A stretch of 64,000 bases of DNA from an uncultured Gammaproteobacteria bacterium (GCA_913052565.1 CAJXFH010000003.1:6702-70701), one strand, 5' to 3'; positions 25,613-40,425 are shown, counted from the stretch's first letter. The notes: generated from the sequence alone by a model not told the origin. Numbers and translations are program-made.

Positions 25613-26635
25613 TTAAGAGTCGACGTATTTCCAGTTGTCCATCAATGATTTGATGAAACTCGCAAGAGGAACTGCAAAAAATACTCCCCATATGCCGAAT
25701 ATTGCCCCAAATAAAAATACCGATAACAGCACTACTACTGCAGGAAGTTTAACAACTCCTGACATTAGAAATGGCAGAAAAATATTGCCATCAATGTTTT
25801 GAAGCATCGCATAGCAGAAAAGTATGAACAGAACATAAGGATCAAGACCAAATTGAGCAAGACTTACTATTGCAACTGGAAAAGTCATAAAAACTGGTCC
25901 AAAGAAAGGTATCAGTTGGCTTAATCCAAAAGTAACTCCTAATAAAACTGGGCTATTTACACCTAAGAGCCAAAACATTAAGCTCCCAAAAACTGCCACA
26001 ACAAATACCTCGATAAATTTAGCTTTGAAATAACTTTGAAAATTTTGATTTGTCTCTGTCCAAACTTTAGCTAAAAATTTTCTTTTTTTGGGCACAAGTT
26101 TTGAGAAACCTGAGGACAAAGTATCAGTATCCCATAACCAAAAAAATAGAAAAATCGGTACCAAAATGATGCTCAGAAATAAATTTGCTGTGTCCTGTAA
26201 TCGTGAAATTCCGAAAGATACTGCATCAGAAGCAAATCCACTTATATCACTTAGAAAGCTTTGGGCTCCTTCTATTGATTCATTTGGTGCGTTAACTTCG
26301 CCAAGAAAAGAGATTATTGGTTCAGAGATTATGCTCAAGCTTGGCAACTCACTAAGATATCTATTAGCTTCGTTTATAAATAATGGTATGAAAATTAATA
26401 AAAACAGTGTTGCCAATAAAACAGCAATTAAAAAAGTTACAAACACACTCAATCTTTCTGGAATGCCAATTTTTGTGAAATAAACATGCATTGGTCTAAA
26501 TAGAAATGCTAGAACAATACTGGTGAGAATCGGAGCTGATAAGTCTCCAACAACCCACAGGGCAAAAAATCCAACAAGCATTACGGATACCAAAAACATT
26601 ATTTGTTGGTTTTTGATTAAATTATTTAATCTCAT
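25613..26635 (-). CDS. perM: AI-2E family (UPF0118) transporter, PerM-like
   Basis: 340 aa polytopic membrane protein. It is divergent from the bepA homolog, as perM is in E. coli. Confidence 0.65.
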   Translation of the reverse strand: MRLNNLIKNQQIMFLVSVMLVGFFALWVVGDLSAPILTSIVLAFLFRPMHVYFTKIGIPERLSVFVTFLIAVLLATLFLLIFIPLFINEANRYLSELPSLSIISEPIISFLGEVNAPNESIEGAQSFLSDISGFASDAVSFGISRLQDTANLFLSIILVPIFLFFWLWDTDTLSSGFSKLVPKKRKFLAKVWTETNQNFQSYFKAKFIEVFVVAVFGSLMFWLLGVNSPVLLGVTFGLSQLIPFFGPVFMTFPVAIVSLAQFGLDPYVLFILFCYAMLQNIDGNIFLPFLMSGVVKLPAVVVLLSVFLFGAIFGIWGVFFAVPLASFIKSLMDNWKYVDS

Positions 26636-26688: not shown

Positions 26689-28107
26689 ATGATTAAAAAA
26701 ACAATTGTTTCTCTTCTCGCTTTGTTGTTGGGATTAAATAATTTTGCTCAAGAAAGCAGTATCGAACTCCCATTAATAGGTGATAGATTGAGTGGCGCAG
26801 TATCTCAAACTGAAGAGGAAGCACTTGGCCGTCAATTCTTGAGGGATCTAAAAAGACAAACAGCCATACTATATGATCCAATTGTACAGGAGTGGACAGA
26901 GCTATTTATCTATAAAATTGGAGAACAAAGCAAAGTAAGCAAAAAAGCTTTTGAAGTAATATTAATTGAGGATAACTCACTGAATGCTTTTGCTGCACCA
27001 GGAGGCATCATAGGTGTTAATGCTGGGTTATTTAAATATGCAGAAAATGAGGCACAGTTTGCTTCAGTAATATCACATGAGCTAGCTCACATTAGTCAAA
27101 GACACTTTGCAAGACAAGTACTGGAAGGCAGTGACAGAAGCAATGCAAATCTAGCAACAATCCTTGCTTCAATCGTTGTGGCAGTAGCATCAAGTAGTCC
27201 TGCAGCCATCATTGGTGGTCAGGGGATCCTGGCAACTCAACAATTAAGATTTTCAAGATTATATGAAACTGAAGCAGATCGAGAGGGTTATGTAACACTT
27301 CAAAAAGCTGGATACGATACTGTCCAAATGTCTGAAATGTTTAAAAATATGCAAGAAGTTAGAAGATTATCAGGCGACAATATTCCAGAATTTCTTCTGA
27401 CTCACCCTATTACAACTAGGAGAATTACTGAATCCAGAGAGAGAGCAAGAGAATTTCCAAGTCCAGGCATCATTGATAGTCTAAATTTTAAATTAATTAA
27501 AAAAAGAGTTAGATACCTAATGACTGACAATTTGTCTATACGATCTATTGAAAAGGAAATTGGAAATAAAGATGAGGATATCTACTTTCGTGCACTTATT
27601 GAAATGAAGAAATTAAATTTTTCAAAATCAATAGAACTTTTGACTAATCTTGAAGAAAAGTATCCAGATAATTTAATAATTAAGACAACTATAGCTGAAA
27701 TTTATACAGAATCTGGAAATGTCAGAAAAAGTAAAGATTATACAAACAAACTGCTTTCAGTTTCTTTAGGAAACTATCCTTTGAGCTATAACCTTGCAAA
27801 TGCTTATATGCTTGAGGAAGATTTTATTGCAGCTGAACAGATACTAGAAGATATTAAATTTTATCGTCCAGTAGATATAAACCTGCTGAGAGATTTGAGT
27901 GAAGTACAAAAAAGAAGTAATAACTTATTAGGCTACCACTTAACTAATAGCGAGTTTTTGTTTTATTCAGGAAGATATGAAGAAGCATTAAGAGATCTTC
28001 AAGAAGCTAGGAGAATAGCTCAGAATAATTTCAAAATAAGGGAAATTATTACTGAGAGAATTCTTATTCTACAATCTTATGTCCAACCGCAAAGAAGAAG
28101 GTCTTAA
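26689..28107 (+). CDS. bepA: Periplasmic M48 metalloprotease with TPR domain (BepA/YfgC-like)
   Basis: 472 aa with a signal peptide, the zinc motif HELAHISQRH, a downstream ETEADREG and a C-terminal TPR-like region. Confidence 0.8.
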   Translation: MIKKTIVSLLALLLGLNNFAQESSIELPLIGDRLSGAVSQTEEEALGRQFLRDLKRQTAILYDPIVQEWTELFIYKIGEQSKVSKKAFEVILIEDNSLNAFAAPGGIIGVNAGLFKYAENEAQFASVISHELAHISQRHFARQVLEGSDRSNANLATILASIVVAVASSSPAAIIGGQGILATQQLRFSRLYETEADREGYVTLQKAGYDTVQMSEMFKNMQEVRRLSGDNIPEFLLTHPITTRRITESRERAREFPSPGIIDSLNFKLIKKRVRYLMTDNLSIRSIEKEIGNKDEDIYFRALIEMKKLNFSKSIELLTNLEEKYPDNLIIKTTIAEIYTESGNVRKSKDYTNKLLSVSLGNYPLSYNLANAYMLEEDFIAAEQILEDIKFYRPVDINLLRDLSEVQKRSNNLLGYHLTNSEFLFYSGRYEEALRDLQEARRIAQNNFKIREIITERILILQSYVQPQRRRS

Positions 28108-29012
28108 CTATTCTGAGAATAAAATTTACTTATACTTTCAAAGACTTTTTGTCTTTCTAGTTCTTGAAAGGGTTCATGTCTCATATTCTTAAAAACCCTA
28201 AATTCTGATTTAAAACCTGTTTGAATTAGAAGATTGTGTATTTCCTCTGCTTGTTTGCCGTGTGCATTCACAGCATCTTTATCTCCGGTCAATAAATAAA
28301 AAGGAATATTTTCATCCATCATTCCAAAAGATTTTTTTGTCCATAAATTAATGAATCCGTTTGCCAAATCCTGCCACATTTGAGTAGTTTTCTTGAATCC
28401 ACATAAAGGGTCAGCAATATACTCATCGACTGACTTTTGATCTGATGAAAGATAATCATGTGTCGTTCTGTTGGGTTCAAACTCAGCATTTTGTTTGATT
28501 GTTGTTAATTTTTCCATTTCATCACTTAACCCTCTTTTTCCTTTAATAATATACTCAGGCCAAATCAATAATTTATTTAGGTACATAAGAAAGGGATTTA
28601 TGCTAAATGCCGCACTAAGAACCACTCCATTAAAAAAAATATTTCGTTTTAAAAGAGATATTATCAAAGCAGTGCCTAGACTATGACTTATTACATAATG
28701 ATTAAGAGTAGGATGATTCTTTCTGATTTCACTATTCATTTCTGCTAATTGATCTATTACGGCCTCATAACCATTTTCTTCAAGAAAGAACCCTCTTAGC
28801 TTACCGTCCGTAATGTGTAGGCCATGGCCTAAGTGATCTGAGCAATAAACTATATAGCCTCTTTCATTAAAATATTTTGCGGTTTCATGATATCTTCCAT
28901 GATATTCAACAAGACCATGGATTATTTGAATAGTGCCAATGGGATTGTCTACATCATCCCAAACCATTCCTCTTAAATTGCCATGTTCGCTTGGCAAAGA
29001 GATTTCTTTCAT
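28104..29012 (-). CDS. Alpha/beta hydrolase, lysophospholipase / monoacylglycerol lipase-like (Hydrolase_4 type)
   Basis: 302 aa with HGLVEYHGRY, the nucleophile elbow SHSLG, the acid motif GDKD and a C-terminal His (MRHEPF). Confidence 0.7.
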   Translation of the reverse strand: MKEISLPSEHGNLRGMVWDDVDNPIGTIQIIHGLVEYHGRYHETAKYFNERGYIVYCSDHLGHGLHITDGKLRGFFLEENGYEAVIDQLAEMNSEIRKNHPTLNHYVISHSLGTALIISLLKRNIFFNGVVLSAAFSINPFLMYLNKLLIWPEYIIKGKRGLSDEMEKLTTIKQNAEFEPNRTTHDYLSSDQKSVDEYIADPLCGFKKTTQMWQDLANGFINLWTKKSFGMMDENIPFYLLTGDKDAVNAHGKQAEEIHNLLIQTGFKSEFRVFKNMRHEPFQELERQKVFESISKFYSQNS

Positions 29013-29677
29013 TCTTTTAAAATTTTTGTATAGCTTTCAAAATCTTCTCTATTTGTTCTAAAGCTATTTGCTGGATCTTCACTATCTTCGTATCCAAGAG
29101 CAATTCCACACCAAAGAATCTCATCGTCTCCGTAACCAACATGCTTCTTAATTAACGAAGGAAATCCTGCCCATGCTTCTTGTAAGCATGTAGCAAGACC
29201 GGCATCTACAGCAGCTAAACAGATATTTTGTATAAAATGTCCAACGTGGCCCCAGCCGTTCGGCCCAACACACTCATTTACTGTAATGAATATCCCAACA
29301 GGTGCACCGAAAAATTCATAATTTTTTCTTGCTTGTTTCATTCTTTTTTCTGTATCTTCTCTTTTTATATCAAGAGCATCATAAAGTGCGAAGCCGGCAC
29401 CTCTTTGTCTTGCTTTATACCAGTCTGGTCTTTCGGATGGGTAAACTTGATAAACTTCCTTTTCAATCTCACCTTTGTCAAAAAGCTCGCATGCTTCTTT
29501 AACTAAGTTATCTCTTGCTTTATCGCATAATACGTATACCTTCCATGGTTGCGAATTAACTCCTGATGGCGCTCTCTTTGCTAATTCAAGAATTTGTTTA
29601 ACTGTTTCAATATCTACTTTTTTTTCTAAATAAGCCCTTGATGAGTATCTTTTTAGAATCGCATCTTTAAGTTCCAT
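29009..29677 (-). CDS. Nitroreductase family flavoprotein
   Basis: 222 aa with RYSSRAY and APSGVNSQPW, typical of the FMN nitroreductase fold. It has an ATGA overlap with the downstream hydrolase. Confidence 0.8.
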   Translation of the reverse strand: MELKDAILKRYSSRAYLEKKVDIETVKQILELAKRAPSGVNSQPWKVYVLCDKARDNLVKEACELFDKGEIEKEVYQVYPSERPDWYKARQRGAGFALYDALDIKREDTEKRMKQARKNYEFFGAPVGIFITVNECVGPNGWGHVGHFIQNICLAAVDAGLATCLQEAWAGFPSLIKKHVGYGDDEILWCGIALGYEDSEDPANSFRTNREDFESYTKILKE

Positions 29678-29734
29678 AACTTCCTCTATGATTGACTGTT
29701 GATTATAACCCCATTAATTAAAAAAATTTTACGG

Positions 29735-31120
29735 CTATTGGGTTTTAAGATTTCTGATAATTTGTCTATGAGTTTTTCTGTCAATTTCATATTTAAAAAA
29801 AATGGTTACAGGAATTAAGAATAATAAAAATACTAAAGGTCCTTGAAAAAGAGCGAGCAGTTCTGTTTGTGCATTTGAAGGCTCAATATTTCCCTCTGGA
29901 AAGCCTATTAACCATAAGGCAAACATTGAGAAAAACTGACCTAAACCTGTCATACATTTAGCACAAAAAGATGTAACTGAGCTAATTGTTGCATCTTGCC
30001 TTAATGATGAATTGCTTTGCACTTGATCAATTATATCTGGAACCATAGATTCTCTTATCATCAGGCTCAATAAAGAAAAAGTACCAGTAACAAAGATAAA
30101 AAATGATAAAAATAACACCAAACTTTCAGAACCTAGATCAGGTGCATATCCAATTTTATATAAAATGAAGGGAGTCGCTTGAAATACTCCAATTAAAATA
30201 AGGCAAAAAATTATTATCTGATTTTTTTCAAAATAATGAACAACCCGAGGTGCCAGATACCAACTTATGAGTGTTGAAGCAAAATAAATTTTTATAAATT
30301 CTTGAATCTGCAACGGACTTAAATCCCAAAATTCTGTTTGTGTAAGAAATGTCAGGCTATTTGCTAAACCCCAAGCCAATTGGATAGTTATGGAGCCTAG
30401 GAGAAAAATTATTATAGATTTATTTGTATAGATAAATCTTAATTCAGATAAGATCTGATCTAATTTATTGTGAATCGTGTCAGCTTTTGGCCATACATAA
30501 AGTTCTGGTATTAAGGATTTGGTCCCAATGATTGATATCATGCCAAGTGCAAGCATCATGACTGAACCAATTACACCCACAAGACCCCAAGCTGCCTCAT
30601 TATCAAGACTGATCATAGGCAGAATGAGAAATGAATGGGATAGCGCAATTAATGACTGAAATCCCTCTCTTAAGGACATAATTGAGGCTTTATCCTCATA
30701 TGTATCAGGTATTTCTGCAGCCAAAGCTCGATGCGGAATATCAAATAAAGTTACGAAAAATCTAGTCAGAACAGCAAAAATTAAAAGCCAAAAAAATAAA
30801 AAGAATTGTGATTCTGCCCAGCCACTGTCTGGGTAAAACAATAAGTAATAGGAAATAGATATCGGTAATAGCGAAATAAACATTAGAAAATGCCTTCTAC
30901 CGTATTTAGTTTTCAATCTATCTGACAGTACCCCAATTAAAGGATCAGTAATAGCATCAAAAAAAAGTGCAATTAATAAAGCCAGACCTGTTAGAAGAGG
31001 ACTAAGACCAAGAACAGTTAGATAATAGGCTCCTAAATACCAGACAAAGAAATCGGTTTTAATAGCATTAACACCACCACCAAGGCCAAAACAAATTTTT
31101 TCAAATAAGTTAATTTTCAA
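29735..31120 (-). CDS. Glycoside-pentoside-hexuronide (GPH/MFS_2) family cation symporter, substrate unknown
   Basis: 461 aa with about 12 TM helices and the GPH signature DAITDPLIGVLSDRLKTKYGRRHF. Confidence 0.75.
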   Translation of the reverse strand: MKINLFEKICFGLGGGVNAIKTDFFVWYLGAYYLTVLGLSPLLTGLALLIALFFDAITDPLIGVLSDRLKTKYGRRHFLMFISLLPISISYYLLFYPDSGWAESQFFLFFWLLIFAVLTRFFVTLFDIPHRALAAEIPDTYEDKASIMSLREGFQSLIALSHSFLILPMISLDNEAAWGLVGVIGSVMMLALGMISIIGTKSLIPELYVWPKADTIHNKLDQILSELRFIYTNKSIIIFLLGSITIQLAWGLANSLTFLTQTEFWDLSPLQIQEFIKIYFASTLISWYLAPRVVHYFEKNQIIIFCLILIGVFQATPFILYKIGYAPDLGSESLVLFLSFFIFVTGTFSLLSLMIRESMVPDIIDQVQSNSSLRQDATISSVTSFCAKCMTGLGQFFSMFALWLIGFPEGNIEPSNAQTELLALFQGPLVFLLFLIPVTIFFKYEIDRKTHRQIIRNLKTQ

Positions 31121-32219
31121 TTTTATTAATATAGTTATTAATTCTTGTGTTTACGTTTTTTCTAATATGGTTCCAAAATATTTGATAGTCCCAATTATGT
31201 AAATCTTTTTTGCCTGTAATGTCAGTTTTTAATAACCTTTCTATTGTCGATCCTCGTGTTTCTAGATAACCCTTTTCACTCACGCGTGCAAAAATTTCTT
31301 GATTTTGAGGTAGGTATAAGTTTTTAATGGAACTTGAATTCTTATCTACAGCTTTGTAATTGAAAAATACAGAGGGTCCTGAAAGTTTTGGCATTAATAA
31401 AGATTCAAATTTACTTTCGTGCCATTCTTTTGATGTGTTCCAAGAAATTGGATTTGTTGTATGAAGGTGATTAATTTCTTTTAAAGAGTATGAATCTCCA
31501 TCAAACATCCAATATTTGAGCTTTGCTCTAACTGCACCTTCACCTACAGTTTGGAATTGAATAATACTTGGCTCATCAGCAGATTCACAAGCTATTTCTA
31601 AATCTAAATTATCGCTTAACGAATTATCTAGAGGGTATCCTATAAGATAAGCAGCTAAGAGACGTTCGTTAAAATCCTTCTTAAATTCTTCTTCATGAAA
31701 CAGTCTTTGTCCATGCAACGAACCCTGACTATGTGAGGCAATTATAAAAGGTTTTCCTTTAGAAAAATTTGTTAAAAAAAACCTGAATGCTTTTTTAATA
31801 TCAGAATATGCTACCTCTAAACTTTGTTGACTATTTGATTCATTATTTTGTGAAATGGCTGCAAATGTTGCTTGCCTATACTCAGGAGCATATATATTAC
31901 AGCTTTCATAAAAAGCACTTGCCTGACTAGAAAGCATCAGTTGAGTTCTTTGGAAAGTTGAGGAATCTCTATCAATATGAAAATTCCATTCTTTTAAAAA
32001 AAACCCTGTTGGGTGAATATAAAAGCAATCAATTATTTTATTTCTTTTAAATTCTTTATTAAAAGGGGATAGGCTCTCAAAAGATTTATTTTTAGGGGTA
32101 CATGCCCAAAAAAATTGATCAGAGTAATCAGGTTCTGGTGGGAGGTCTTTATCAAAATCTTTTTCAGGAGTGATAGATTTAAAAAATTCATTCAAGAATG
32201 AATTTTCGCTTTTTTGCAT
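31110..32219 (-). CDS. DUF3089 family alpha/beta hydrolase (putative lipase/esterase)
   Basis: 369 aa with IDCFYIHPT, YAPEYRQAT and the nucleophile motif ASHSQGS. It has no signal peptide. It overlaps the transporter gene by 11 nt. Confidence 0.7.
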   Translation of the reverse strand: MQKSENSFLNEFFKSITPEKDFDKDLPPEPDYSDQFFWACTPKNKSFESLSPFNKEFKRNKIIDCFYIHPTGFFLKEWNFHIDRDSSTFQRTQLMLSSQASAFYESCNIYAPEYRQATFAAISQNNESNSQQSLEVAYSDIKKAFRFFLTNFSKGKPFIIASHSQGSLHGQRLFHEEEFKKDFNERLLAAYLIGYPLDNSLSDNLDLEIACESADEPSIIQFQTVGEGAVRAKLKYWMFDGDSYSLKEINHLHTTNPISWNTSKEWHESKFESLLMPKLSGPSVFFNYKAVDKNSSSIKNLYLPQNQEIFARVSEKGYLETRGSTIERLLKTDITGKKDLHNWDYQIFWNHIRKNVNTRINNYINKIEN

Positions 32220-32222
32220 TTC

Positions 32223-35200
32223 TTATTCGTTGACTGTTAGATCAAAAACTTGAACAGCAGCATCTGTACCATCGCTTACTACAATTCTGACAGTGTATTC
32301 TCCTATGTCGTCTTCTCTCGGAGTACCTGTAACACGTCCGTTAGCAGGAGATATTGATAAGAAATCAGCAGCTGAACCGTCAGATTTTTTTGTTATTTCC
32401 ATTGTATATGTAAGCACATCACCATCTTCATCCTCTGCTCTTAGACCATAGAAGTATAGTTGGTTAACGTATGCGTCTGTAAATGGAGAAGTAGTAATAA
32501 CAGGCGCATTATTAGCAACACCTTCTAATTCCGGTGCTAGGTTTATTGACAGATCTGAAACATTTGAGTCGGTTATTTCAAATATTGAACTTGAACCAGT
32601 CATTTCACCTGGACCACCATAAGAATTATCACCATTAATATCTGATCCTATAGTCATTCGGTAGTTACCTGGGTTGATTCCTGTGAATACAAATGTGCCT
32701 TGTCCATCTATCACAGGTGAAAATACTTCTTGTACAGGTATTCCATTTTCATCAAGCAACCTTGCTTTCAGTGCTGGAAGGTTGATATCGTAGGCTTCAC
32801 CAATAACATTAAAGATTACATTCACTCCAACAGAGAGTAACTCATAACCATCAAAAGGAAGATCTGCCCCTTCGATGAGAGGAAAGTCAAATAAGATTGT
32901 TGAATTAACCCAACCCGCCCAAGTGTAGTCTTCTTTCTTGGAGACTGTGAAATTAAATCCGTCTGCTGAAACATCTAAAAATTCAGATTGATAAGTATAA
33001 GTAACATCATTGAAGCCTTCACCAGCTGCACCACTTGGGGTAATAGTGAATTGTCCTGAATAGTTATCCTCTGGAAGAAGAGTAACTAATGATGGTCCCT
33101 GATAGTAAGGTAGGGAATCAAAGCTTGTGAAATAACCATTTTCAAATGAATCAACTGCTTTGATAGCTTTATGCAAGTCAATTATTCCATAACCTAAATG
33201 CTCATCCCAACCAGGTCTAGCAACAGAATCATTTGGTCTAGCTTCTTTGTTTACATCATTTGTTAGCAAGTTAGCAGCTAGCATTTTATCAACCTCAACA
33301 TAGGTTAACTGGCTTGGTAAGCTTGGGTTTGATTCATAAGGCTTTACGATGTCCTCATAATAATATTTAACAAGACCTAAAAATCCTGCGCCATGAGGGG
33401 AAGCCATAGAAGTTCCTTGTGCCCCTATTAGTTGGTTACCATTATTGCTGGATTGAATATAACTATCTACATATGCATATGCATAAACTAGATCATCGAC
33501 TCCATCTGCATTCCAATCAGAGTATTCTCCTCCAGGTGCAGAGAAATCTACATATTCATTTGTTGAAGAATAACTGGATCTTCTATCTGTTCCGTTGGTT
33601 GCACCAACTGAATAAACTTTTGGACAAGCAGCTGGATAGCTCGTTGAACCTACACCTCCGTTACCAGATGATGAAGCAATAAGAACGCCTTTATCTGCAA
33701 GCTCACCTAGTTTTGTACATGATGCAGATGTTGGACTTCCTCCACCGCCGCCGTAACTCATATTCATTGAGTGTAAAGTTTCACCACCACTTCTTTGTGA
33801 AAAACTTGTACCTGAGTCATTGCTATCTCCATTTAAAAACAGATACGCTGCATAAGTTGGGCCACAACCATTTTGATAACAGACCCTCACAGGAGTAACT
33901 TTTGCACCCATACCGTTTCCATCTATACCATCATTAAGCATAGAAATTGTGCTTCCAACGTGTGTCCCATGACTAAAAGATCCTTGCTCAAATTCAATAT
34001 CATCAGCAAGAGGATCGTTATCTTCCATATCCCATCCCCATTCAGTAGTGAATATTGATCTTTGGAATGCAGGGTCTGGCAAGTAAGGACTTCCAGAGTC
34101 TAGTACTGCAACATTTACTGGTTTAGTCTCCTGGCCAATAATATCTAGAGCTTCAGGAATATTTACAACATCGAAGTTCCACCATTGATATGTGTTATAA
34201 CTTGGGTCTTGTGTAAAAGGTTCATACTGAAGTGAACGATTCCAACTTGGTTCTACAAATAAATTTGGAGACCTTTCTTTAAGGACAGAAATTGCTTTCA
34301 TATATCTACCCCTTTCATACGCATCCGGCAGACTCTCCCTTAACGTTGATGTGTACTCTTCATCTTGCCCTAGACCTGCCATTTTTGCTAAATCAGACAT
34401 TGTTACATCAACTAAACCGCCTTCGACATTTCCCATTTCTTGAATGAGTTCATTCTCCGTTTGATTTGTATTGAATCCATCAAATGCTGGTTTTTTAGCT
34501 AGGAGAATTTTTTCTAAATCAAAATCAGCATTAGCTTCATCAGCTGCCTCTTTCAATGCATTTGAGCTGGCAAATTGCGGAGTTTGTGTTATTACATATG
34601 CTGAAGGGATTGAGTTATCAACTCTGTAATGATCAATAAAGACATAGTAAATATCTCCTTCACCAGCAGGTATATAAGCAGTTTCAACTTTATTGTAAGT
34701 ACCACCGACGTTGTCTGTATTTTCTTCCGAATCAATGATGAACATATCTAAATCAACATTTGAATTTGTAGCTGAAGGATTGCCATTATGATTTACCATT
34801 GTAAGTTCAAGGTTGATCCTACCAGGGCCTGCAATTACTTGGAAAAGATCTGCGTCATCTTCTCCACCTAGCCAACCTAATATAGTTGAACCTTCCTCTA
34901 TAAATTGAGCTCTGTTTGTAAAGTTATTCGATATGTTTTCAAAATCTGGATTATTAATATCTGAATCAAGTGCGAAAGGACCATCAATTCCTAATGCACC
35001 ACCAACGTTATATGTTCCAGGGCTTGGTTCTGGAGTTGGTTCAGGCGTTGGTTCAGGCGTTGGTTCTGGTGTTGGTTCAGGCGTTGGCTCTGGTGTTGGT
35101 TCAGGCGTTGGTTCTGGGGTTGGTTCAGGCGTTGGCTCTGGTGTTGGTTCTGGTGTTGGTTCAGGCGTTGGTTCTGGAGTTGGCTCTGGTGTTGGTTCTG

Positions 35201-35780
35201 GTGTTGGTTCCAGTGTAGTTCCATCGGCATTGAACAGATACCAAACTCCACCACTACCATTTCCGTTTGCATCACTATCAGAACTGTCACCAGTGTACTG
35301 ATAGGCTGGTTGGTTGTTGATAAGAATTTGATTTTCTGAATTTTTTGTAAATGTGGCTGTGAAAGATGCAGGTTCTGTAATTACCAGCTCAGATATATCT
35401 CTATCTGTTGTCACGTATGGCCAAGCTGAGCCCTGATATGTGCCGACACCGTCATTAATTCCATCTGGCGTGTAAGCGTAAATTGTTCTCAGATTTGCTA
35501 CCGCATTCCCACCCGGAGTAGCACTTGCATTAACTCCTGACATCTGTATCACCTCATATGCACTTCCGTCAATTGTTACGGATAGAAGAGATGCAGTTAA
35601 TGGTGCTGGTGTTGGTTCTGGTGTTGGTTCAGGTGTTGGAGCTGGTGTTGGAGCTGGTGTTGGAGCTGGTGTTGGGTATGGGTTAGGAGTTACTGGCTCA
35701 ACTGAACTACCTCCTCCTCCGCAGGCAACAAGAATAGCTGTTGAAAGTGCTGAGAAGACGAGATTTAGGTTCTTTTTCAT
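32223..35780 (-). CDS. Large cell-surface lipoprotein subtilisin-like (S8) serine protease with PT/EPTP linkers, a PPC-like domain and a C-terminal Ig/cadherin-like domain
   Basis: 1185 aa. The lipoprotein signal is ...STAILVAC|GGGG. Residues about 61-190 resemble the COG4315/PF03640 secreted-lipoprotein repeat ([14 protein letters not shown]; [14 protein letters not shown]). A PPC-like region contains DDADLFQV. The S8 triad is D561 (VAVLDSG), H604 (HGTHVGS) and S791 ([11 protein letters not shown]), with an oxyanion Asn in SSSGNGG. The C-terminus has a He_PIG-like domain ([19 protein letters not shown]). Confidence 0.85.
35021..35211 (-). repeat. In-frame tandem 12-nt repeat, 16 units, encoding (EPTP)15-EPSP
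   Basis: The plus strand shows ggttc[t/a]gg[n]gtt units. They encode aa 191-254 of the protease. Third codon positions vary between units. Confidence 0.95.
35601..35690 (-). repeat. In-frame Pro/Thr/Ala-rich repeat encoding [25 protein letters not shown]
   Basis: This is a second PT linker immediately after the lipobox Cys (aa about 31-60). It uses the same 12-nt unit family as 35021-35211. Confidence 0.9.
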
Positions 35781-35885: not shown

Positions 35886-35961
35886 TGGTGGGTCGTATAG
35901 GATTCGAACCTATGACCAACGGGTTAAAAGCCCGGTGCTCTACCAGCTGAGCTAACGACCC
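35886..35961 (-). tRNA. tRNA-Lys (anticodon UUU), CCA encoded
   Basis: The reverse complement is GGGTCGTTAGCTCAGCTGGTAGAGCACCGGGCTTTTAACCCGTTGGTCATAGGTTCGAATCCTATACGACCCACCA. It has a 7-bp acceptor stem, a D arm GCTC/GAGC, a T arm ATAGG-TTCGAAT-CCTAT and an anticodon loop CTTTTAA. It is close to E. coli tRNA-Lys, and a tRNA-Lys after cpoB matches the E. coli arrangement. Confidence 0.95.
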
Positions 35962-35974
35962 AACAATAAAAACG

Positions 35975-36616
35975 CTATTCTAGACTACTTAGAGCTTCAC
36001 TGGAAGCTTTTGCAGCCGAACTTTGAGGGTATTCTCTTATTACACTCTCGAACTGTGCTGCTGCTCTATCTAGACTTCCCTGCTCCAAATATATAGAGCC
36101 GAGTTTAAATTTTGCTAGTGGCACTTTCCAATGCGTAGGATAAAGACCCACAAGAGTATTAAAATTTTGAGTCGCAACCGCTAAATTTTCATTTGTTAAA
36201 TTAATCTCTCCCATCCAAAAATAAGCCAAAGGAGTATTTTCAGAATCTGGCGAATTTTGAATATATACACTTAGCGAATTAAGAGCTTCAGAGAGACGGC
36301 CTTTTCTAATAAGCAAAATAGCTTCATCGTATGTATTGAGTGACTTGGTCTCCTCAGTATTTTGAACTTCTATTTTTTGTAAATCCTCAATAGACATGAC
36401 AGACGTCAAACGAGAGTCTAGGCTATTTATAAGTTCAAGATTTCTGTTCTGATAAAAATCAAGTTGTGTTTGCATTACTTCTAACTCATTCCTCAAAGAG
36501 GCAATTTCTTTTTCCAAAGTTTGGATTTTTAAATAAAGCTCGATGAACTCTTTGTTTTCATCAGCTTGTGAGAAAGAAAAAGAGCTTAAAAGAATTATGA
36601 GTAATATTTTTTTCAC
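35975..36616 (-). CDS. cpoB: Cell division coordinator CpoB (YbgF)
   Basis: 213 aa with a signal peptide, an N-terminal coiled coil and a C-terminal TPR region. It is the last gene of the tol-pal cluster. Confidence 0.8.
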   Translation of the reverse strand: MKKILLIILLSSFSFSQADENKEFIELYLKIQTLEKEIASLRNELEVMQTQLDFYQNRNLELINSLDSRLTSVMSIEDLQKIEVQNTEETKSLNTYDEAILLIRKGRLSEALNSLSVYIQNSPDSENTPLAYFWMGEINLTNENLAVATQNFNTLVGLYPTHWKVPLAKFKLGSIYLEQGSLDRAAAQFESVIREYPQSSAAKASSEALSSLE

Positions 36617-37110
36617 TATCTAATAAAGAATACTTCTGCTCTTCTATTCTTTGCCCATGCTGTTTCATTTGATGCAACATCAACTGGCGATTCCTCACCA
36701 TAACCAACAACTTCAATGTTGAAAGATGAAACACCTGTTGCAACCAAAAAGTCTTCAATTGCCTTTGCTCTTCTTTCACTGAGAGCTAAATTATATTCTC
36801 TTGTTCCTCTTTCATCAGCATGCCCCTCAACTAGTAAAGTATATCTAGCATCTCCTTTCATCATCCTTGATATTGTAAAGAGACTTTCCAAGGATTCTTC
36901 CTTTAATGTATCCTCATCATAATCAAAGTAGACTGTAACGAAGGCTTCCCCAACATCAACTTCATTCATAGGATCAACCCTATTTTCTTCTGTTGATTTT
37001 TCAGTTAAATCAACTGTTGTAGTTTCCTGAACTTCAACTTTTTCAACTGGTGTTGTTGAACAAGCAAATATAAAAAAAATCGTAAATATTAAAATTAATG
37101 CGTTTTTCAT
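36616..37110 (-). CDS. pal: Peptidoglycan-associated lipoprotein Pal
   Basis: It has the lipobox IFACS and an OmpA-like domain (VYFDYDEDTL, LVEGHADERGTREYNLALSERRA). I prefer the ATG at 37110 (MKNALILIF...) to the track start at 37134, which would overlap tolB. Confidence 0.92.
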   Translation of the reverse strand: MKNALILIFTIFFIFACSTTPVEKVEVQETTTVDLTEKSTEENRVDPMNEVDVGEAFVTVYFDYDEDTLKEESLESLFTISRMMKGDARYTLLVEGHADERGTREYNLALSERRAKAIEDFLVATGVSSFNIEVVGYGEESPVDVASNETAWAKNRRAEVFFIR

Positions 37111-37112
37111 AA

Positions 37113-38366
37113 TTATCTTAAAAATGGTGACCATGCAGGTTCTTTTAATTCTCCAAATAATGCCGGAAGCTTAAAGCTTACCTTGCTGCTTATATTTACA
37201 CCAGCAAGATAAGACAAACTACCTTCTTTAGCAGAATAAATTATAACATTCCCATTTGGTGCAATACACGGACTTTCATCATTTTTAGTGGTTGTAAGTA
37301 CTTCAAGCTTTCTAGTTGTAAGATTCATTTTCGCAACATTAAAATTTGAGCTAAAACGATGAACCAGGACAATCTCATCTTCACTAATATATGAAGCCCT
37401 AGCGTTATAAGTGCCTTGAGTTGTTAATCTCCTTTTTAATTTCGTCCTGACATTTATTTCATAAATTTGGGGGCTGCCAGATCTATCAGAAGTAAAAATT
37501 ATTTTCTTTCCATCCGGTGACCATGCAGGCTCAGTATCGATTGCGCTATTTTCTGTCAGCCTAGAGATTTTTTTATTGTTCAAATCAATGATATAAATTT
37601 CAGAGTTGCCATCTTTTGTACTAGTAAGTGCCAGATTCTTTCCATCCGGTGACCATGCAGGTGAGCTAACTGAAGAACTAGAACTTAATATTAAATCTCT
37701 TTTGCCTGATGCTAGATCTTGAATGAATACCTGTGCTCTATTATTTTCAAAAGACACATAGGCAATTTGTTTTCCATCACTCGACCATGCTGGCGAAATA
37801 ATAGACTTATTGGATTTTAATAAAACCTGGTCATTGAATCCATCGGCATCACTAATAATCAGTTTATGAGTATCAAGGTTTTTAGTTACATACATCAGTT
37901 TGGTTGAAGAGATTCCATCAATTCCATAAAAGTACTTATAAACACCATCAGAAATATAGTGGCTTGTTTGTCTGAGACTATCAGGCAAACCTAAAATAAT
38001 TTTTTTCTCTTCGACTTCATCGTAACTTACATCAAAAAGTGACCAGTCAATATCTAAACTGCCTGATGTACTATCTATCTCTAAAAACAAAATTGAATCT
38101 ACATCTAATAAAAGCCAATCTCTTTGAATTACCTCAGATTCGTTGGCAGGAACACTTAATAATTCATTGATTCCTAATATTTCAAATTCTCCTGTTCTCT
38201 TAAGATCATTGCTCACAATTTCAATGATCTCTTGGCCGACCATTGAGTTATTATTTTTTTCTAAAATAGCAATTTTTACTGGCTTAGAAGCTCCTTCTGT
38301 TATTTCTAAGACAAGGTCCGAAAAAGCATAGAAGCTGAATAGAAGTAATAAAAATAATGCTCTCAT
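37113..38366 (-). CDS. tolB: Tol-Pal system beta-propeller protein TolB
   Basis: 417 aa with a signal peptide and repeated SPAWSPDGK blades. Confidence 0.93.
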   Translation of the reverse strand: MRALFLLLLFSFYAFSDLVLEITEGASKPVKIAILEKNNNSMVGQEIIEIVSNDLKRTGEFEILGINELLSVPANESEVIQRDWLLLDVDSILFLEIDSTSGSLDIDWSLFDVSYDEVEEKKIILGLPDSLRQTSHYISDGVYKYFYGIDGISSTKLMYVTKNLDTHKLIISDADGFNDQVLLKSNKSIISPAWSSDGKQIAYVSFENNRAQVFIQDLASGKRDLILSSSSSVSSPAWSPDGKNLALTSTKDGNSEIYIIDLNNKKISRLTENSAIDTEPAWSPDGKKIIFTSDRSGSPQIYEINVRTKLKRRLTTQGTYNARASYISEDEIVLVHRFSSNFNVAKMNLTTRKLEVLTTTKNDESPCIAPNGNVIIYSAKEGSLSYLAGVNISSKVSFKLPALFGELKEPAWSPFLR

Positions 38367-38956
38367 TCTGGTTTGAATCTCAAAGTAAACTTAGAAAAAT
38401 AAATTCTATATTCTTCATCATTAATGGTATTAATATATCGCACTTGCTTATATTTCCTTATAGCATTAAGAGCCGCTCTATCAAATGCCTTATTTCCACT
38501 CGATTGAACTAATTCAATATCATCGATTAACCCAGACCTGCTAAGACTTAAAGAAAAATCTGCAAACATTCCTTTTTTAGAATTATTGGGCTTAATCCAC
38601 AACTCTTCAATATCTTTGATAACTTTGGAACTGATTTGTTCAACAATATCGATATTCTCTAATATTTTTTTTTGCAATGCTTCCTCTTCAAGGTATTCAT
38701 CAAGATTTTCTATTTGTTTTTGTTTTAATTTGGTTTCTGCTATTTGCTCACTTTTTGCCAGATTTTCATTTTTGCTTGAGGTGACTGTTTTTGATTTTTT
38801 AACTTCAATTGTTTCTTTTGGCTCTTCAATAAAATTTACATTTGTAATTTTTCTGAAGGTTTCTTTAGTTTCAGAAACTGAAAAAACTTCGTAACTAATG
38901 AAAATGAGGACATGGACAATGACAGATAACAAAATAGCACTTATCCATCTAATCAT
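38363..38956 (-). CDS. tolA: Tol-Pal system protein TolA (short form)
   Basis: 197 aa with an N-terminal TM helix, a Lys/Glu-rich helical spacer and a TonB_C-like C-terminal domain (NKAFDRAALNAIRKY). It lies between tolR and tolB. Confidence 0.75.
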   Translation of the reverse strand: MIRWISAILLSVIVHVLIFISYEVFSVSETKETFRKITNVNFIEEPKETIEVKKSKTVTSSKNENLAKSEQIAETKLKQKQIENLDEYLEEEALQKKILENIDIVEQISSKVIKDIEELWIKPNNSKKGMFADFSLSLSRSGLIDDIELVQSSGNKAFDRAALNAIRKYKQVRYINTINDEEYRIYFSKFTLRFKPE

Positions 38957-39372
38957 GGCTGAGTGGCGAGAGAAAAGTTATTTGCTCCGTTAGCTTGTAA
39001 AACGCTAAGTAGTTCGGCAATAGCTTGGTAAGATGATTCTTTATCGCCTCTGACAATTATTTCAATATTTGGATTTGCAGAAATTACTTTACTGAATCGA
39101 TCTTCGATAAAACCTAAAGATACTTGGACATTTGAGCCATCTTCCTCAATAAAATATTTTCCGTCTTTGCTTACGTCAATTGTAAAGGGCTGTGAATTTT
39201 CAAGCTCAATTTCATCAGCAGGTGCATTTGGCAAGTTTATATCTATTCCTTGAACTGCAAGTGGAGCAACTACCATGAAGATAACCAGCAAAACGAGCAT
39301 AATATCAACATAAGGTACAACGTTTATTTCGTTAATAACTTTTGAATTTTTTCCGCGTTTCTCCAGGAGCAT
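38953..39372 (-). CDS. tolR: Tol-Pal system protein TolR (ExbD family)
   Basis: 139 aa with the ExbD-type N-terminus INVVPYVDIMLVLLVIFMV. Confidence 0.9.
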   Translation of the reverse strand: MLLEKRGKNSKVINEINVVPYVDIMLVLLVIFMVVAPLAVQGIDINLPNAPADEIELENSQPFTIDVSKDGKYFIEEDGSNVQVSLGFIEDRFSKVISANPNIEIIVRGDKESSYQAIAELLSVLQANGANNFSLATQP

Positions 39373-39373
39373 C

Positions 39374-40018
39374 TTAATTATTTTTAAATTGAGTTATTAA
39401 CTCCTCAGCAAAAGCGAGAGAACCATTGATCAAATTATCCAATTTTTTGGAAAATTGATTATAGGCAATAAGTGCTGGTATAGCAGCTAACAAACCAACT
39501 GCTGTTGCTACTAAAGCTTCTGAAATTCCAGGCGCAACAGAACTTAAAGTAAGTTGTGCAGTTGTTGATAGTCCTTGGAAAGCGTTAATGATTCCAATCA
39601 CAGTACCCAATAATCCGATGTATGGCGCACTTGAGCTAATTGTAGCCAGAAGTGCAAGGTTTTTAGATAATCTTTCTTCTTCTCTATTTGCAACAACTCT
39701 TATAAGCCTTTCTGTTGATTCAATATCTGAATTTGAATTGCTCTTTGATTTCAGTCCATCACATATTGTCACTAATACAAGTTCAAATGGTTCTAATTCT
39801 GAGCCTTTGTCTTTTATTGATAAATAAAGATCGTCAATTTTTTCGCCTTCCCAAAACCTATCCTCTAAGTCATGAGAGGCTTTTGTTGCCTTTGACAAAG
39901 TAAAGTATTTTTCGAAAATTAAAATCCATGAAGTGACTGATGCAATGACTAAAATGACCAAAATTATTTGGACCGGCAAGGAAGCTTGCAACAACATTTC
40001 TACTGCATCAAAATCCAT
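39374..40018 (-). CDS. tolQ: Tol-Pal system protein TolQ (MotA/ExbB family)
   Basis: 214 aa with three TM helices and the conserved ApYIGLLGTViGI region. Confidence 0.92.
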   Translation of the reverse strand: MDFDAVEMLLQASLPVQIILVILVIASVTSWILIFEKYFTLSKATKASHDLEDRFWEGEKIDDLYLSIKDKGSELEPFELVLVTICDGLKSKSNSNSDIESTERLIRVVANREEERLSKNLALLATISSSAPYIGLLGTVIGIINAFQGLSTTAQLTLSSVAPGISEALVATAVGLLAAIPALIAYNQFSKKLDNLINGSLAFAEELITQFKNN

Positions 40019-40425
40019 TATTTATGTTCCTCAAGATCTTCTTGATAAAAGTTATCAATTAAATATATAAAACTATCCCAATTAAGATCAACTAACTTAG
40101 TTTCATCATTAAGCTTTTGATTTAAGTTTGAAATTTTTACTCTAACTCTGATTGGTTTGTTATCAAATTTGTAAACTAATGCTGGGTATTCTCCATCTTT
40201 TGTTACACCAAGCACTTGATCCCACCAGGCTGATGCTGGCTCAAAGCCCTTTTTATATGCTTTGCATTCAATATTCCATCTACCAATTTTTAAATCAGGG
40301 TGATTCTTCTCTTGGTATTGATTAAGAATTCTTCTAACAGGTTTTTTTAAATTAAGATCCTCTTGTAGTTTTTTGGCAATTTTTCTTTCGAAATCATGGC
40401 CTTTTTTTCTCTGATTTATTGTCAT
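40018..40425 (-). CDS. Hypothetical PD-(D/E)XK nuclease-like protein (Hjc / T7 endonuclease I-like motif order); candidate Holliday junction resolvase
   Basis: 135 aa with E13 in GHDFERKIAKKL, D44 in HPDLKI and E53-x-K55 in NIECK. The alternation of segments fits the alpha-beta-beta-beta-alpha-beta core. One-nt TAATG overlaps join it to yebC upstream and tolQ downstream. It occupies the ruvCAB-ybgC slot. Confidence 0.45.
   Translation of the reverse strand: MTINQRKKGHDFERKIAKKLQEDLNLKKPVRRILNQYQEKNHPDLKIGRWNIECKAYKKGFEPASAWWDQVLGVTKDGEYPALVYKFDNKPIRVRVKISNLNQKLNDETKLVDLNWDSFIYLIDNFYQEDLEEHK

Follow-up and report, generated by a model that had tools for sequence, protein, structure and literature searches.

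We analyzed positions 28104–35780 of a 64,000-nt stretch of DNA from an uncultured Gammaproteobacteria bacterium (GCA_913052565.1 CAJXFH010000003.1:6702-70701; hereafter the window). This interval lies between bepA and the tRNA-Lys gene that precedes cpoB, and holds five co-oriented genes, all on the minus strand, which encode an S8 subtilase lipoprotein (S8), a DUF3089 α/β-hydrolase, a GPH/MFS_2 symporter (GPH), an NfnB-like flavin mononucleotide nitroreductase and a Hydrolase_4 α/β-hydrolase (Hyd4). An earlier reading made from the window alone (the original prediction) took the interval for a non-syntenic insert and for the only clearly accessory DNA in the window. We conclude instead, with high confidence, that the five genes are native, vertically inherited chromosome of one SAR86 lineage rather than acquired accessory DNA, because the block is syntenic in relatives, diverges together with bepA, is native in composition and carries no marks of mobility. 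The interval is a lineage-specific catabolic neighborhood made of known families. It probably consists of two or three co-located catabolic units, among them a pair tentatively read as import-then-de-esterify, and not of one five-gene machine.

The five genes are open reading frames (ORFs) at the coordinates originally given, and their Pfam assignments are far above the gathering scores. Read along the minus strand, the interval begins with the S8 gene (32223–35780, 1185 aa; PF00082 at 92 bits, plus PF05345), which a 3-nt gap separates from the DUF3089 gene (31110–32219, 369 aa; PF11288 at 164.8 bits against a cutoff of 23.4, covering profile positions 1–206 of 207). The start of the GPH gene (29735–31120, 461 aa, TTG start codon; Pfam MFS_2 at 193 bits against a cutoff of 27) lies over the DUF3089 stop in an 11-nt overlap. 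A 57-nt spacer follows, then the nitroreductase gene (29009–29677, 222 aa; PF00881 at 96.8 bits), which is joined to Hyd4 (28104–29012, 302 aa; PF12146 at 118 bits) by an ATGA overlap of 4 nt, visible in the reverse complement of 29002–29027. The junctions thus agree with those first described, and so does the domain content of three hydrolases, one importer and one flavoenzyme (three serine hydrolases, a symporter and a flavoenzyme). The single strand, the gaps of 3, −11, 57 and −4 nt and an order kept in relatives are operon-like traits. At the far end, the stop codon of bepA (plus strand) overlaps convergently with that of Hyd4 (minus strand) by 4 nt at 28104–28107, which leaves no space for a terminator between them; in relatives the tblastn matches to these two genes abut or lie at most about 20 nt apart.

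The window belongs to SAR86, apparently to the TMED112-like family, TMED112 being one of the four SAR86 families (PMC11582366). We scanned one genome per species for BepA, seeding the scan with exact peptides so that it reached close relatives only, and compared the neighborhoods by tblastn with the window proteins together with tRNA scans. The scan yielded 25 loci, 23 of which matched SAR86 with BepA 72–87% identical. Most of these 23 are labelled SAR86 or Gammaproteobacteria and two are labelled otherwise; two TMED112 genomes are included. Contigs L005 and L024, whose gene order is clearly that of SAR86 (BepA 72–81%; L numbers denote individual loci), were deposited under Halobacteriovoraceae and Thalassarchaeaceae metagenome-assembled genomes, labels that probably reflect binning contamination of public bins.

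Three gene configurations were seen. In configuration A, that of the window and of most species, bepA on the plus strand is followed on the minus strand by the genes for Hyd4, nitroreductase, GPH, DUF3089 and S8 and then by tRNA-Lys and cpoB. Configuration B (L007, L009, L010, L012) has the same order with an S9 peptidase gene exactly between those for nitroreductase and GPH; its product is a secreted, Dpp5-like protein of 658 aa with a β-propeller and a prolyl-oligopeptidase domain (L010, 13006–14982), and an S9 peptidase gene is found at this junction in L052 and L053 as well. In configuration C (L013, L014, L021; clade C) bepA, Hyd4, nitroreductase and GPH are followed by tRNA-Lys and then by a 135-aa ORF, yebC and aspS, and S8, DUF3089 and tolQRAB-pal-cpoB are all absent at the site (about 14400–15030 in L021). 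Hyd4 and nitroreductase adjoin bepA in all 20 loci that extend past bepA, and GPH is present in each of the 19 that reach further. DUF3089 and S8 occur in 15 of the 18 species representatives whose loci reach beyond GPH, with tRNA-Lys and cpoB next wherever the locus extends to them. Wherever a relative of configuration A or B was scanned for tRNAs, tRNA-Lys had cpoB on one side and S8 on the other; in clade C it adjoins GPH.

The block is shared by species whose BepA is only 75–87% identical. Another 23 contigs of configuration A or B came from metagenomes scanned with DUF3089 as the seed. In the window's own population, all 10 independent contigs whose BepA is identical to that of the window carry the five genes, and they differ from the window only in the length of the second proline-rich repeat in S8. 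The five genes are not scattered in relatives, an outcome that would have marked the grouping as fortuitous under the original prediction; almost every related SAR86 genome has them in one common order. The same observations speak against its description as a non-syntenic insert and as accessory DNA.

To test for a foreign origin, we built pairwise identity matrices from the 20 loci in which all genes are complete and compared each with that of bepA in a Mantel test. All five genes diverge in step with bepA (r = 0.945 for Hyd4, 0.884 for nitroreductase, 0.905 for GPH, 0.890 for DUF3089 and 0.948 for S8; p = 0.001 each). Their mean identities are 73% (nitroreductase), 64% (S8), 64% (GPH), 62% (Hyd4) and 55% (DUF3089) versus 82% for bepA, and such faster evolution is normal for non-housekeeping genes. 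The GC (guanine plus cytosine) content of the interval is 36.4% versus about 34%, and 35.7% without the TPEP-encoding repeats of the S8 gene. Its tetranucleotide distance lies 1.9 standard deviations above the mean of equal-sized windows and ranks third among 57 sliding windows; without the repeats the excess drops to 0.6 standard deviations, so the composition check that had been suggested does not point to foreign DNA. No integrase or recombinase was found among the ORFs of the interval, which are the five Pfam-bearing ORFs of at least 80 aa plus short shadow ORFs. The 23-nt 3′ end of tRNA-Lys, with up to three mismatches allowed, occurs solely in the tRNA itself and has no distal direct repeat, and no flanking repeats were found around the interval. 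The flanks had correctly been called conserved, as both micro-syntenies are present in Escherichia coli K-12, yfgO divergent to bepA on the one hand and ybgC-tolQRAB-pal-cpoB-lysT on the other. There the two blocks are 1.8 Mb apart; hence they are not ancestral neighbors, and there was no junction between them to insert into.

The history of the DUF3089–GPH pair can be followed outside the window's relatives. The closest relatives of DUF3089 beyond configurations A and B (36–40% identical) are found at a second locus type (L026–L031 and L054–L111; e.g., L026, 9004–13405) on low-GC (29–43%) marine gammaproteobacterial contigs. This type makes up 57 of the 80 metagenome loci. It consists of a hotdog thioesterase, an optional 190-aa HD-domain protein, DUF3089, an optional Abhydrolase_1 protein and MFS_2, in a neighborhood that differs from that of the window (DUF349, trpS, hemH). 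Every locus of this type that is long enough has MFS_2 after DUF3089, either directly or past one α/β-hydrolase, and these MFS_2 proteins are 37–39% identical to the window GPH over the full length. In neighbor-joining trees on Kimura distances, the method used for all trees here, DUF3089 and MFS_2 show one and the same split into two reciprocally monophyletic groups (bootstrap 100/94 and 100/100, respectively), at equal depth (Kimura distance about 1.26 each). The trees indicate that DUF3089 and GPH already formed an inherited unit before the two locus types split and have remained one. Neither S8 nor nitroreductase is present at the second locus type. The HD-domain protein is weakly similar to the PhnZ/TmpB phosphonate oxygenases and the Abhydrolase_1 protein to macrolide esterases. 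We also considered Hyd4 as an orthologue of this Abhydrolase_1 protein and rejected the idea, as BLASTP gave no match at 1e-3 and the two belong to different α/β-hydrolase subfamilies.

The other genes of the interval show no comparable association. We found neither a linkage of S8 nor a linkage of nitroreductase with Hyd4 outside the clade. Homologues of Hyd4 drop from about 49% identity within SAR86 to 34% or less, and in the three contexts examined for distant ones (about 30% identity) the surroundings were unrelated and adjoined neither nitroreductase nor MFS_2. The search for GPH homologues listed at least 120 matches; all those listed were SAR86 orthologues (67–100% identity), and no distant contexts appeared.

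Two kinds of acquisition have to be weighed against native descent. The block resembles tRNA-associated genomic islands in lying directly 3′ of tRNA-Lys, in holding non-housekeeping genes and in that S8 and DUF3089 are missing from one clade. What sets it apart from them is the lack of an integrase, of a direct repeat copying the tRNA end and of foreign composition; in addition, it is fixed in species and strains alike and diverges together with its flanks. A recently acquired island, that is, foreign DNA that separates two conserved blocks and varies from strain to strain, would fit the adjacent tRNA gene, the slightly raised GC content, the third-highest tetranucleotide distance and the lower conservation of the five genes relative to the flanks. 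We nevertheless consider it extremely improbable: the block is shared by species of such divergent BepA and by all contigs of the window's population, its Mantel correlations with bepA are 0.88–0.95, its compositional deviation comes mostly from the TPEP repeats, and there are neither mobility genes nor repeats. The idea of a tRNA island was dropped on these grounds, namely the native composition, the missing tRNA-end and flanking repeats and the presence throughout the population. An old acquisition, in which the ancestor of the family majority gained S8 and DUF3089 by insertion at the tRNA-Lys 3′ end and the two genes were then fixed, with the other three already beside bepA, is unlikely in our view, though clearly less so than a recent island. 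S8 and DUF3089 do abut the tRNA-Lys 3′ end, clade C lacks both and has tRNA-Lys directly beside GPH, and since the trees of the flanks allow no rooting, a single gain is as parsimonious as a single loss. Against it stand the missing integrase, attachment-site repeat and compositional signal, and the second locus type, where DUF3089 and MFS_2 stand side by side and have diverged to the same degree: as the pair is older than the split between the locus types, loss of DUF3089 in clade C is favored over its primitive absence. Clade C is also without tolQRAB-pal-cpoB at the site, which shows that the region was rearranged there, and when the GPH tree is rooted with the second locus type, the clade C GPH nests beside that of L012, which has S8 and DUF3089. 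Native descent of all five genes thus remains our conclusion. As an insert the interval is unimportant, since it belongs to the ordinary core chromosome of a marine lineage that is abundant and uncultured.

The DUF3089 family is that of the metagenome-derived “family XV” carboxylesterases, members of which have been shown to be active (PMC4431682; PMC5341072); Est10 prefers C4 esters (PMC4431682), and the Ser/Asp/His triad of MGS0012 was verified by mutagenesis (PMC5341072). Like Est10, EstGK1, EstZ3 and MGS0012, the window protein matches the full DUF3089 profile and has the x-H-S-Q-G serine elbow and C-terminal His and Asp residues, and like EstZ3 and EstGK1 it has no signal peptide (PMC4431682). 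Its nucleophile elbow is SHSQG, so that the first Gly of GHSQG is replaced by Ser, a position that varies between G, S and A among relatives; H163, S164, Q165, G166, H341 and D344 are invariant in 16 relatives. The His/Asp assignment follows Est10 numbering (PMC4431682), and MGS0012 assigns the Asp differently (PMC5341072). Two further differences from the characterized enzymes are that esterase activity is a prediction for the window protein and that its gene is coupled to that of a GPH symporter, a coupling unmentioned in either study (PMC4431682; PMC5341072). A confident AlphaFold2 model (predicted local distance difference test 86.5, predicted template modelling score 0.90) has an α/β-hydrolase core. 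Foldseek searches of the PDB with this model gave weak, generic matches to α/β-hydrolase esterases and lipases with template modelling scores below 0.3 and gave no hint of a substrate, and a PDB sequence search found nothing.

The GPH protein belongs to the 12-helix MFS_2 fold family of MelB (a melibiose/Na+ symporter) and Mfsd2a (a eukaryotic lysophosphatidylcholine/Na+ symporter). It aligns with MelB over the full length (E 1e-12) and with Mfsd2a over the N-terminal half (E 2e-13), the latter similarity being partial (43 bits, N-terminal 145 residues). Its cation-site motif DAITDP aligns with DAINDP of MelB (D55/D59) and is the same as DAITDP of Mfsd2a, with both cation-site aspartates identical. 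The symporter gene has no glycosidase gene nearby and has esterase genes as neighbors instead.

Because DUF3089, nitroreductase and Hyd4 have no N-terminal hydrophobic segment and no signal peptide, all three are predicted to be cytoplasmic. The nitroreductase is NfnB-like (PDB 3gr3 at 4e-45 over residues 4–221; 7dp0 at 3e-41), and all NCBIfam equivalogs score far below their cutoffs; nitroreductase genes are widespread in SAR86 (PMC11582366). The best PDB matches of Hyd4 are 5o7g and 5olu (1e-23), both deposited as “alpha/beta hydrolase family protein”. Similarity to monoglyceride lipases is about 1e-9 and confined to the N-terminal 120 residues, and lysophospholipase L2 is matched at 28.8 bits, far below the cutoff of 362. 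By its sequence Hyd4 looks like a carboxylesterase or monoacylglycerol-lipase-like enzyme.

S8 carries a lipoprotein signal ending in the lipobox LVAC, read by eye rather than by a predictor. Its catalytic domain spans residues 555–865 and is followed by a C-terminal He_PIG Ig-like domain, and the D, H and S triad motifs are intact in the translation, with GTSMASPH as the Ser motif. Two proline-rich (T/E/A-P)n linkers are encoded by 12-nt tandem repeats.

These features suggest how the neighborhood might work. The S8 lipoprotein, exposed at the surface or in the periplasm on its proline-rich linkers, would degrade external protein. GPH would carry an amphiphile or glycoside that bears an ester, for instance a lyso- or glycolipid or another acylated compound, inward across the inner membrane, and the cytoplasmic DUF3089 carboxylesterase would then remove an acyl or ester group from it. 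Hyd4, apparently coupled translationally with nitroreductase, may finish the same breakdown by deacylation. S8, and in configuration B also S9, would act as extracytoplasmic peptidases that share the neighborhood and probably not the substrate. We infer the substrates, the direction of transport and the transcription units of the five genes from family membership and gene context. Our confidence is accordingly graded: a neighborhood of two or three catabolic units is probable, and the specific import-then-de-esterify reading of GPH and DUF3089 is tentative, with the chances somewhat against it.

SAR86 genomes hold many lipases and β-oxidation genes and few ABC importers (PMC3358033; PMC11582366). 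As SAR86 is regarded as a lipid-based lineage and yet has few recognized importers, the transporter–esterase pair is a candidate inner-membrane entry for acylated compounds. The lipid-degradation loci described for SAR86 (Dupont et al., 2012; PMC3358033) are similar in that esterase-family enzymes stand beside a transporter in a lipid-specialized, ABC-poor genome. Theirs, however, are built around patatins, BCCT carriers and TonB-dependent receptors, whereas here a GPH symporter is joined by DUF3089, a nitroreductase and a subtilase, and the five-gene cluster is described in neither PMC3358033 nor PMC11582366. One may go further and see in the recurrent trio of DUF3089, GPH/MFS_2 and a second α/β-hydrolase a dedicated inner-membrane route by which lipid-specialized, ABC-poor marine gammaproteobacteria would import lyso- or glycolipids or other acylated amphiphiles for cytoplasmic deacylation. 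The trio would then be a bacterial counterpart, in function, of the eukaryotic lysolipid symporter Mfsd2a, with S8, S9 and nitroreductase as clade-specific additions. We offer this general form as speculation that is unlikely to hold. That DUF3089 and a divergent GPH are adjacent and co-diverged in two deep low-GC marine gammaproteobacterial lineages is a testable lead, and it places DUF3089, hitherto known from activity screens only, in a genomic setting that hints at its role in physiology.

Several observations weigh against our reading of a native import-and-esterase pair. The pairing is not universal, as a third DUF3089 group (L114–L116, 354 aa) stands alone between DUF3604 and rhodanese genes. 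The transporter can work in the absence of that esterase, given that clade C has GPH but no DUF3089. The GPH protein scores below the NCBIfam cutoffs for GPH (TIGR00792, 133.8 bits against 231) and MelB, is equally distant from MelB and Mfsd2a, and in a HMMER alignment has N, A and R in place of the MelB sugar-binding residues K18, D19 and W128, with D124 kept. The history of GPH is, moreover, partly discordant with that of its neighbors, so that descent was not purely clonal. The GPH of L012 and L052 (configuration B) is 62% identical to the clade C GPH and 48% identical to that of L007, also of configuration B, whereas the trees of perM with bepA and of Hyd4 with nitroreductase join L012 to L007 (bootstrap 183/200 and 185/200). 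The GPH genes compared lie at 29735–31120 (minus strand) in the window, 15037–16404 in L012, 6965–8344 in L014 and 14688–16067 in L007. The discordance suggests allele replacement or recombination within the family, confined to the GPH gene. As to the third DUF3089 group, some members have an N-terminal hydrophobic extension, and rotamase and HupE/UreJ genes are found nearby, without MFS_2.

Transcription signals in the interval were searched for on the sequence. The scan for promoters and terminators gave fewer sites than in shuffled sequence and was thus not better than chance; it showed no terminator-like site between the five genes on the coding strand, in itself an uninformative result. 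The best sigma-70-like match of the interval, a consensus match only, is TTGACA-16-AATTAT at 29784–29757 on the minus strand, within the 3′ end of the GPH gene and next to the GPH–nitroreductase spacer (together 29678–29784). As the S9 gene of one clade sits at this 57-nt spacer and the promoter-like site lies in the GPH 3′ end, the two together suggest an internal transcription-unit boundary between GPH and nitroreductase. The joint absence of S8 and DUF3089 from clade C was taken as further evidence of a boundary between sub-units. An Rfam scan returned the tRNA only, with no riboswitch and no leader.

How far the five genes act together can be asked from two opposite ends. At the one end, all could form a single operon for one pathway scavenging protein plus lipid, with every product acting on one substrate stream. 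Co-orientation, gaps of at most 57 nt, two overlaps, the missing terminator-like sites, the order kept across the family and the fact that the extra gene of one clade encodes another secreted serine peptidase would all suit such a pathway. Yet S8 is extracytoplasmic while DUF3089, nitroreductase and Hyd4 have no signal peptides, and GPH-family carriers are not known as peptide importers. The second locus type does without S8 and nitroreductase, clade C drops S8 and DUF3089 and keeps the rest, and the S9 insertion and the promoter-like site mark an internal boundary, all of which makes a single pathway improbable. The scavenging module for protein plus lipid or ester substrates that was originally proposed therefore survives in part: it is plausible for DUF3089 and GPH, which are linked again at the second locus type, and not for the whole, as S8 and S9 vary between clades and nitroreductase and Hyd4 show no linkage outside the clade in the contexts examined. 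At the other end, the five genes could be functionally unrelated neighbors held together by descent because a streamlined genome rarely rearranges. The whole 20-kb neighborhood (purC, bamC-like, dapA, perM, bepA … tol-pal) is indeed equally collinear in the same genomes, nitroreductase and Hyd4 show no linkage outside the clade, and no shared substrate can be named. Against descent alone stand the renewed linkage of DUF3089 and MFS_2 at an independent locus in different genomes and the co-divergence of the two proteins, and the 11-nt and 4-nt reading-frame overlaps suggest translational coupling. We regard it as the strongest of the alternatives, though still rather unlikely, and prefer a neighborhood of two or three catabolic units.

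The S8 repeats account for the local GC peak at 35–36 kb. The (TPEP)n linker repeat (35024–35210, minus strand) has about 15.6 copies of its 12-nt unit, and a shorter proline-rich repeat (TPAP/TPEP; 35601–35689, minus strand) comes directly after the lipoprotein signal. The longer repeat varies within the population, with 32 X-Pro dipeptides here versus 16–18 in sister contigs, and it is also an assembly breakpoint, where many metagenome assemblies break or carry 100-N scaffold gaps. Several protease gene calls in sister contigs (L120–L129) are shortened at the repeat, to 858–992 aa.

The flanking genes lie as follows. On the left, perM (AI-2E_transport; 25613–26635, minus strand) is divergent to bepA (M48 and TPR domains; 26689–28107, plus strand). 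On the right, tRNA-Lys(UUU) (35886–35961, minus strand) stands between S8 and cpoB, the first of the genes cpoB, pal, tolB, tolA-like, tolR and tolQ (35975–40018, minus strand). Between tolQ and yebC, at the position of ybgC in E. coli, there is an ORF of 135 aa (40018–40425, minus strand). A PDB sequence search showed no relative, and the sole match of the ORF is to a phage PDDEXK endonuclease family (PF24608, 1.5e-8) rather than to a thioesterase. This ORF is kept in the clade C loci as well.

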